This document shows, one piece after another, positions 5,085 through 5,175 of a stretch of DNA of 14,368 nt (position 1 is its first letter; every line of letters starts with the position of its first letter). This DNA comes from a virus. The DNA is taken from the UHGV virus genome UHGV-0068104; one strand, 5' to 3'. Position numbers and translations under genes: made by a program. Under the pieces are notes generated by a model. The model did not search any database and was not told the DNA's origin. It saw only the letters and a program-made list of their open reading frames with translations.

Positions 5085-5175
5085 CCCGACCCGGGGGGGG
5101 ATCATCCGGCGTAAAAAACGATCGCTTTGGACACCGCGCCCCCTCTCACGCAGAGAAAAAATTCCCGTTTCAGGG

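Follow-up and report, generated by a model that had tools for sequence, protein, structure and literature searches.

We examined the spacer between the HNH endonuclease gene and the small-terminase gene (terS) in a 14,368-nucleotide (nt) stretch of UHGV virus genome UHGV-0068104 (hereafter, the window). Comparison with related phages makes it probable that positions 5093-5166 are the core of a cohesive-end (cos) site serving HK97-type, HNH-assisted packaging in an HK97-type prophage of the Stx family, with a conserved G-tract as a sub-element. An earlier note, made from the letters of the window, had listed a G8 run, a CGATCG-centred near-palindrome and a C-rich tract within 5086-5150, and reading the sequence directly found every one of these features where the note had put them. 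It had proposed the interval as a possible cosN; the interval does hold the cohesive-end site, and the G-run and the C-rich tract both belong to it, but the nicks do not fall on CGATCG. Judged against the published ends of relatives, the C-rich tract is the cohesive end itself.

Used as a query, positions 4700-5950 showed 92-99% identity to 94 phage records, and the sequence assigns the window to the late region of a lambdoid prophage in the Stx-phage family BP-4795 / 2851 / 1717 / Lys8385Vzw. Escherichia phage Lys8385Vzw, an Stx1 phage ~95% identical to the window here, has a record that ends ...GGACACCGCCCCCCCT (longer: ...GGGGGGGATCATCCGGCGAAAAAAACGATCGCTCCGGACACCGCCCCCCCT) and restarts CTCACGCAGAG (CTCACGCAGAGAAAAAATTCCC...), and PhageTerm called for it a 3' cos with a 10-nt 3' overhang, CGCCCCCCCT (PMC7946995). 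For the Acinetobacter phages fEg-Aba01/fLi-Aba02, whose TerL is 53% identical to that of the window, a 10-nt 3' cohesive end, 5'-CGCCCCCCAT-3', was obtained by PhageTerm and a heat/cool restriction gel (PMC7354433). The fLi-Aba02 record annotates its last 10 nt as '3' cohesive end'; its right end reads ...GGACACCGCCCCCCAT (longer: ...GGGGGGATGTCAAAACTTCCAAGCCCTTCGCCGTTGGACACCGCCCCCCAT) and its left end CGCACGCACAAAAAAAATTCCC (longer: CGCACGCACAAAAAAAATTCCCTCTCAG...). The flanks of both phages align with the window segment GGACAC-CGCGCCCCCT on one side of the cut and CTCACGCAGAGAAAAAATTCCC on the other. The GGACAC box is identical in fLi-Aba02, Lys8385Vzw and Pseudomonas phage D3, whose record terminates ...GGACACCGCGCCCCC plus 1 nt, and it had the top information content upstream of the cut in an ungapped profile of 73 sequences.

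By homology, the overhang of the window would be CGCGCCCCCT, with nicks at 5144/5145 on the top strand and 5134/5135 on the bottom strand, and the packaged chromosome would start at 5145 and end at 5144, which places the G8 tract on the last-packaged end. The first base of this tract is the 9th nt past the HNH stop, and from its 3' edge it is 44 nt downstream to the predicted top-strand nick and 34 nt to the bottom-strand one. No two-fold symmetry was found around the overhang centre at 5139/5140 (GGACACCGCGC to its left, CCCCTCTCACG to its right), which fits the proposal for HK97 that TerL and the HNH protein, being different nucleases, may each cut one strand (PMC11331095). The closest characterised relatives of the window are 3'-cos phages, an HNH gene stands directly upstream of cos-terS-terL, and TerL is homologous to HK97 gp2 (24% identity over 489 amino acids (aa), E = 8e-13, BLASTP). 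The same upstream HNH gene was present in 63/69 related loci, and HK97 is arranged alike.

The overhang itself varied among close IMG/VR relatives (CGCGCCCCCT, CGCCCCCCCT, CGCCCCCCGT, CTCGCCCCCT and CGCTCCCCCT), and a few carried one that was one C shorter; this variation may alter the cohesive-end compatibility of co-resident prophages, or may be homopolymer sequencing error. Its C-run is not general, most Burkholderiales relatives carrying CGACCGTTCC or similar. As a separate observation, many IMG/VR virome contigs with an HK97-like TerL (L255, L277, L280, L284, L288, L297, L306 and others) begin 400-590 nt upstream of terL, at about the position of the HK97 genome start; this suggests real cos ends, and the contigs could provide mapped termini in large numbers. 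The record of phage phi330 has a note that mentions cohesive ends, and the phi330 paper is silent on termini.

We then compared the region upstream of the cut across the family. Ten TerL proteins were aligned, and 80 prophage loci of Enterobacterales, Burkholderiales, Xanthomonadales, Pseudomonas and others, with TerL identities to the window of 58-84%, were drawn from a set of 185,579 species genomes. Coding-strand runs of at least six G clustered between -700 and -500 from terL (34 runs in 71 loci, vs 4 runs of at least six C), and every other 100-nt bin held 0-1 such G-runs. When the loci were aligned on a conserved post-cut motif, N[CGT]CA[CT]... A/T-tract, as anchor, a G-run of at least 4 preceded it in 68/73 loci, and these shared one architecture: the G-run, about 34 nt, a 10-mer, and CNCAYGC...A/T-tract...CCC. 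The distance from the 3' end of the G-run to the inferred cut was 41-46 nt in 62/68 loci (mode 45; window 44). At least five G occurred at -60 to -36 from the inferred cut in 60/72 loci, and in 35/44 loci with a unique anchor, a subset that served as control for bias in the choice of anchor; only 0.9% of background 25-nt windows of the same loci held such a run, and at least five C occurred at -60 to -36 in 5/72 loci. G-runs at this place were thus about 90 times as frequent as in background windows and about 12 times as frequent as C-runs. Four loci (L164, L179, L184 and L191; Massilia, Undibacterium and one other) carry at the equivalent position, about 45 nt upstream of the inferred cut, a C-run (e.g. 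CCCCCACCCCCCC) that precedes the same CAAAAGT-like box; this replacement suggests that the duplex tract matters and not one strand.

Phages whose records end at cos gave similar gaps: 44 nt in Lys8385Vzw, 45 in fLi-Aba02 and Xp10, 42 in HK97, HK022 and phiE125, 43 in Bcep176, and 43 plus one unfetched base in D3. HK97 and HK022 have wholly different spacers, yet both end ...GGGGGGGGG-ATCAAATCTTCAAAACCTTTGCCCCAAATGAC-CGCCGCCAAA, with G9 located 42 nt before the genome end, and in the HK97 clade G6-G11 stood at 42 nt in every relative with a TerL identity of 95% or more. The record ends of phiL7, SfV, phiC31 and OP1 gave gaps of 28-36 nt, which are shorter, and were left uncounted: the records of the first three may use a different overhang convention, and alignment of OP1 with Xp10 showed that the OP1 record stops 9 nt earlier. 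Nearer to the window, Salmonella phage FSL SP-016 keeps the entire HNH-terS spacer at 79.6% identity, G8 included. The run measured G6-G13 in the 122 intact-flank members of 124 close IMG/VR relatives (the other two, cut by an insertion sequence, have G5), and the 44-45 nt downstream of it were constant, so that the 3' edge is fixed and the 5' edge alone drifts. The G8 run is accordingly slippage-prone in length, an alternative that the earlier note had offered; the note had also named a variable and unconserved G-tract as the outcome that would speak against a cos element, and of these the length is indeed variable, whereas presence and position are strongly conserved. Comparison of these sequences shows the G·C tract and its spacing to be under constraint, and this conservation suggests a functional role for the tract.

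An insertion sequence of the IS110 family, ISEc20, was found exactly within the cos G-run of PPompW prophages (L003 1546-3004, PPompW_132418), in which the lysis genes and the HNH gene are missing. We considered whether ISEc20 is specific for cos and rejected this, as the same end of the element is flanked by a G-run in every one of 31 IMG/VR loci, which span many unrelated contexts; it seems to target G-runs in general, the cos G-tract being one. In Pseudomonas phage vB_Pae_CF53a (L137), the last 75 nt hold a near-perfect 32-nt inverted repeat with G8/C8 arms (ATGGTGGGGGGGGTGAAAATATCCGGCTTCGC / GCGAAGCCGGATATTTTTACCCCCCCCACCAT) that stops exactly at the record end; it may be a cos site or an assembly artefact.

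In the mechanism we propose, TerS, TerL and the HNH protein would make two staggered nicks, at the positions given above, leaving 10-nt 3' overhangs, and downstream of the cut TerS would recognise the A-tract box, the GTTAAC repeats or both. Set about 44 bp (some four helical turns) before the top-strand nick, the G·C homopolymer would act as a structural or positional element. Its reader would be TerL and/or the HNH protein, or else the motor/portal channel, and not TerS; occurrence of the tract co-varies with TerL and with the presence of the HNH gene (63/69), not with the TerS family, which makes TerL, the HNH protein or the motor the likelier reader. Lying on the last-packaged side, the tract would traverse the motor shortly before cosN arrives at the nuclease, and for this reason we propose, at somewhat less than even odds, that it would help to position or trigger nicking when the motor reaches the genome end, as an analogue of lambda cosQ. 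The unusual geometry of poly(dG)·poly(dC) possibly underlies this role. The tract appears to be indifferent to strand, to need a minimum length and to allow its 5' edge to vary, and these properties suggest a structural reading. More broadly, and tentatively, since we hold this somewhat short of an even chance, poly(dG)·poly(dC) ~42-46 bp upstream of the top-strand nick could be a general element of HNH-dependent 3'-cos sites, a ruler or brake, read through DNA structure, by which the TerL/HNH nicking complex is put in place or the motor is slowed as the genome end arrives. Its range would take in HK97, Stx phages, and Xanthomonas, Burkholderia and Acinetobacter phages, with Streptomyces phages as a possible addition.

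Several points weigh against the cos assignment or against a role for the tract. The overhang and nicks of the window are placed by homology, and the PhageTerm result for Lys8385Vzw was published with garbled coordinates (PMC7946995). The anchor motif was derived from the same family, and where an anchor had multiple hits the one with the best G-run was chosen, which is a bias; several of the record ends behind the 42-45 nt gaps are perhaps not true physical ends. The tract is not universal: 7/72 loci of the window's own TerL clade have no G- or C-run of at least five, and many relatives of HK97 gp2 at 50-65% identity, from environmental viromes, showed no run in the region searched. No G-run was seen in RcapNL either. 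The substrates used for HK97 TerS binding in vitro span -20 to +80 and so exclude the tract (PMC11331095), and no experiment on a cos G-tract was found in the searchable literature. A description of a G-tract in a cos site was likewise not found in the searchable literature, and an earlier one may still exist.

The symmetry noted around CGATCG leads to a different reading, a lambda-like cosN in which the nicks surround the dyad and the GC-rich flanks are the G8 run and the C-rich tract. Lambda-type cosN is a two-fold symmetric nick site that yields a 12-nt 5' overhang. The window does hold a partial palindrome at 5107-5136 (a repeat search paired 18-nt arms, 5107-5124 / 5119-5136, at 78% or 14/18 complementary positions), CGATCG has the G-run on one side and the C-run on the other, and in one Pseudomonas relative, CF53a, the record ends in a true inverted repeat of 32 nt with G8/C8 arms. 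Nevertheless, the measured ends of Lys8385Vzw and fEg-Aba01 lie to the right of the dyad by 13-23 nt, within the C-rich tract, and the space between the nicks is without rotational symmetry, the sole dyad being 18 nt off the overhang centre. The two runs are not equidistant from the dyad centre (G 21 nt vs C 17 nt), and the C-run is missing in most relatives. The terminase points the same way: TerL is HK97-type and not lambda gpA-type, and Pfam assigned TerL_ATPase/TerL_nuclease and Terminase_2 where a gpA-type terminase and a Nu1-type TerS would be expected. The dyad is also unconserved. It is kept among E. coli relatives, varies in an unbiased set of Enterobacterales prophages (CAACTG, CAATCG, CGACCG, TGATCG) and is absent from the Acinetobacter, Burkholderiales, Xanthomonadales and HK97 sequences compared; the IMG/VR relatives are uninformative here, having been retrieved by a pattern that required CGATCG. 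We therefore treat the dyad as lineage-specific spacer, a segment that diverges in sequence across the 68 loci and is held in length within about 5 nt. Folding gave no help to a symmetric site: as single-stranded DNA the 65-nt stretch 5086-5150 reached -8.3 kcal/mol (z = +1.2), and 179/200 shuffles folded equally well or better. On this evidence, nicking at CGATCG is very unlikely, and a hairpin or cruciform pairing the G-run with the C-run was rejected on the same fold result and on the absence of the C-run from most relatives.

A plainer possibility is that the G8 run is a functionless, slippage-prone homopolymer beside cos, recurring through ancestry or mutation bias only. Its length of 6-13 among close relatives has no evident consequence, some relatives lack a run, and at the composition of the window it is unremarkable by chance, at least one G8 run occurring in 111/200 dinucleotide shuffles. 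Within the window alone no feature of this kind exceeded chance, so that the evidence for the G-run and the C-rich tract comes solely from relatives. It is there that neutrality fares poorly. Between clades the spacer becomes unrecognisable, the TerS proteins are unrelated and TerL identity drops to 24%; even so, 62/68 loci and HK97 keep a G·C run 41-46 nt from the cut. The enrichment given above and the confinement of drift to the 5' edge, with 3' edge and gap fixed, also count against neutrality, and a neutral homopolymer would be expected to decay or become interrupted. We consider this explanation unlikely, less so than nicking at the dyad.

The length polymorphism (G6-G13; G6-G11 in the HK97 clade) would also suit a phase-variable or regulatory tract, either a switch for the antisense open reading frame (ORF) 4689-5105 (- strand, 138 aa) or an RNA signal in the HNH-terS late transcript. 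That ORF begins at 5105 and reads the C-run as codons 2-4, and phage phi330 annotates its equivalent as 'hypothetical protein'. However, the tract lies 9 nt beyond the HNH stop, outside any sense ORF and not in a promoter spacer; the antisense frame is kept in 61/122 relatives, which is no frame preference, and the ORF overlaps the Pfam-supported HNH gene, so that as a phase-variable gene it was rejected as probably spurious. Neither a promoter nor a terminator was predicted near the tract, there being no terminator-like site and the only promoter-like sites lying on the minus strand at 5281-5252 and 4807-4779, and no Rfam match at E <= 1 was found within 4600-5500, which removed a structured RNA from consideration. 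The tract keeps its place with respect to the cut but not to terL, from which it lies anywhere between about -350 and -750, and the C-run replacement in four loci argues against an RNA signal. A regulatory role thus appears remote, and a constrained tract within an HK97-type cos core is the reading that we retain.

Features of the window discussed here, with their positions
Feature	Positions	Strand	Remarks
HNH endonuclease gene	4719..5084	+	121 aa; from the ORF list; Pfam HNH PF01844, E = 4.8e-7; stop TAA 5082-5084
G8 tract GGGGGGGG	5093..5100	+	putative conserved G·C homopolymer element of cos; read directly
Spacer	5101..5128	+	A6 tract 5113-5118, CGATCG dyad 5119-5124; sequence lineage-specific, length constrained
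AAAAAACGATCGCTTT	5113..5128	+	holds CGATCG at 5119-5124
GGACAC box	5129..5134	+	directly 5' of the overhang; variants in relatives GGAAAC, TAGAC, GAC
C-rich tract CGCGCCCCC	5135..5143	+	read directly; within the predicted overhang
cosN, predicted 10-nt 3' cohesive end CGCGCCCCCT	5135..5144	+	by homology to the measured ends of relatives
Left-end box CTCACGCAGAGAAAAAATTCCC (G + A6 tract + CCC)	5145..5166	+	candidate TerS/TerL recognition site adjoining the cut; conservation profile
Five ATGTTAAC/GTTAACAT copies	5178-5185, 5184-5191, 5252-5259, 5275-5282, 5292-5299	-, +, +, +, -	candidate cosB-type TerS-binding repeats
terS	5374..5937	+	187 aa; GTG start; Terminase_2 family (Pfam)
terL	5934..7595	+	553 aa; HK97-type; Pfam TerL_ATPase + TerL_nuclease
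Protease-capsid fusion	7659-9596		Pfam
Portal	9808-11172		Pfam

The genes follow the order HNH, the 289-nt spacer, terS, terL, protease-capsid fusion and portal. On the downstream side of the cut, the left-end box is the most conserved block of the profile (consensus CtCACGCGcAGAAaAaaTcCCC), and its conserved G + A6 + CCC part lies at 5153-5166. HK97 TerS binds +15 to +29, reading a G plus an A-tract (PMC11331095); the left-end box is a candidate recognition site for TerS/TerL, and its likeness to the HK97 site is an analogy, the two TerS proteins being unrelated. Further downstream, ATGTTAAC/GTTAACAT has 5 exact matches in 5178-5299, against a shuffle mean of 0.28, and 0/200 shuffles reached 5. 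These repeats sit in a segment of roughly 190 nt between the cos core and terS, a segment that SP-016 and most relatives do not have; there, terS (ATGTTAAC...) begins right after the cos core. GTTAA[CT] motifs adjoin or cross the terS start in most relatives, and fLi-Aba02 has GTTAAA three times. The five repeats look like duplicated copies of an ancestral terS start region, and as GTTAAC-type repeats they are candidate cosB-like binding sites for TerS.

Two GATC (Dam) sites occur within the cos core, at 5100-5103 and 5120-5123, the first using the last G of the G-run; neither is kept in relatives carrying GGGGGGGT-ATCATCC. The late region upstream of the HNH gene also encodes a TonB_C-domain protein (113 aa, 4004-4345; 'protein TonB' in the Lys8385Vzw annotation) and a KilA-N protein (173 aa, 2802-3323).

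The cos site itself is not new: it belongs to the HK97-type 3'-cos class, and the cohesive end of a sibling phage has already been published (PMC7946995). The assignment is ordinary in this respect, and the conservation of the G-tract at a fixed distance is the unexpected and moderately interesting part of the analysis. The exact cos site of a very common E. coli Stx/Stx-like prophage family defines what gets packaged, and its position is useful for predicting transducing particles, cos-borrowing satellites and the true virion ends in assemblies. HK97 is the structural model for cos packaging, and current models explain termination only via TerS bound downstream of the cut; a G·C tract at a fixed distance upstream is absent from these models and lies outside the -20 to +80 substrates on which TerS was mapped (PMC11331095).

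In HK97, the HNH protein gp74 stimulates terminase cleavage at cos, giving 10-nt 3' overhangs (PMC11331095, PMC9410871, PMC13595911). The window resembles it in the order HNH, cos, terS, terL, in a homologous TerL, in an A/T-tract box just downstream of the cut, in a 10-nt 3' overhang (measured in relatives of the window and predicted for the window by homology) and in the G-run itself, HK97 having G9 at 42 nt and the window G8 at 44 nt upstream of the end. It differs in its TerS, a Terminase_2 protein without detectable similarity to gp1, in an HNH protein that can scarcely be aligned with gp74, to which it shows no detectable similarity, in the overhang (CGCGCCCCCT vs CGCCGCCAAA in HK97) and in a further 190 nt or so ahead of terS that hold five ATGTTAAC repeats. 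Among nearer phages, the window TerL is 47-60% identical to those of Xp10, phiL7, Bcep176, fLi-Aba02 and Pseudomonas phages, the N-terminus of its TerS is alignable with that of SP-016 and 51% identical to that of fLi-Aba02 over residues 2-50, and its HNH protein is 70% identical to that of SP-016. Lys8385Vzw and fEg-Aba01/fLi-Aba02 share with it a homologous core, GGACAC plus CGC(G/C)CCCC(C/A)T before the cut and C(T/G)CACGCA...A-tract...TTCCC after it, a G6-G8 run 44-45 nt upstream, and a related TerS N-terminus and TerL. Lys8385Vzw differs from the window by one overhang substitution, whereas the Acinetobacter phages have another spacer, no CGATCG, and GTTAAA instead of the GTTAAC repeats.

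Lambda cosQ is reportedly a termination element located upstream of cosN (Cue & Feiss 1998, listed among the references of PMC11331095). The G-tract would correspond to it in position only: each is short and precedes cosN by a few helical turns, on the last-packaged side and apart from both the nick and the TerS-binding sides. The G-tract does lie upstream of cosN, at the last-packaged end and at a constrained distance, as a cosQ-like element should. Lambda, however, has 5' overhangs, a gpA-type terminase and no HNH protein, and cosQ is not a homopolymer, so that the likeness is one of analogy and not of membership. In herpesvirus pac1, a T-rich core is flanked by G-runs and cleavage occurs at a fixed distance (review, PMC13595911); the likeness would lie in G-runs that neighbour an A/T-rich element and direct cleavage to a point at a set distance, but host range and terminase composition are wholly different and sequence homology is absent, which again limits the comparison to analogy. 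If the ruler or brake reading is true, the G-tract would be the functional counterpart of lambda cosQ and of the herpesvirus pac1 G-runs.
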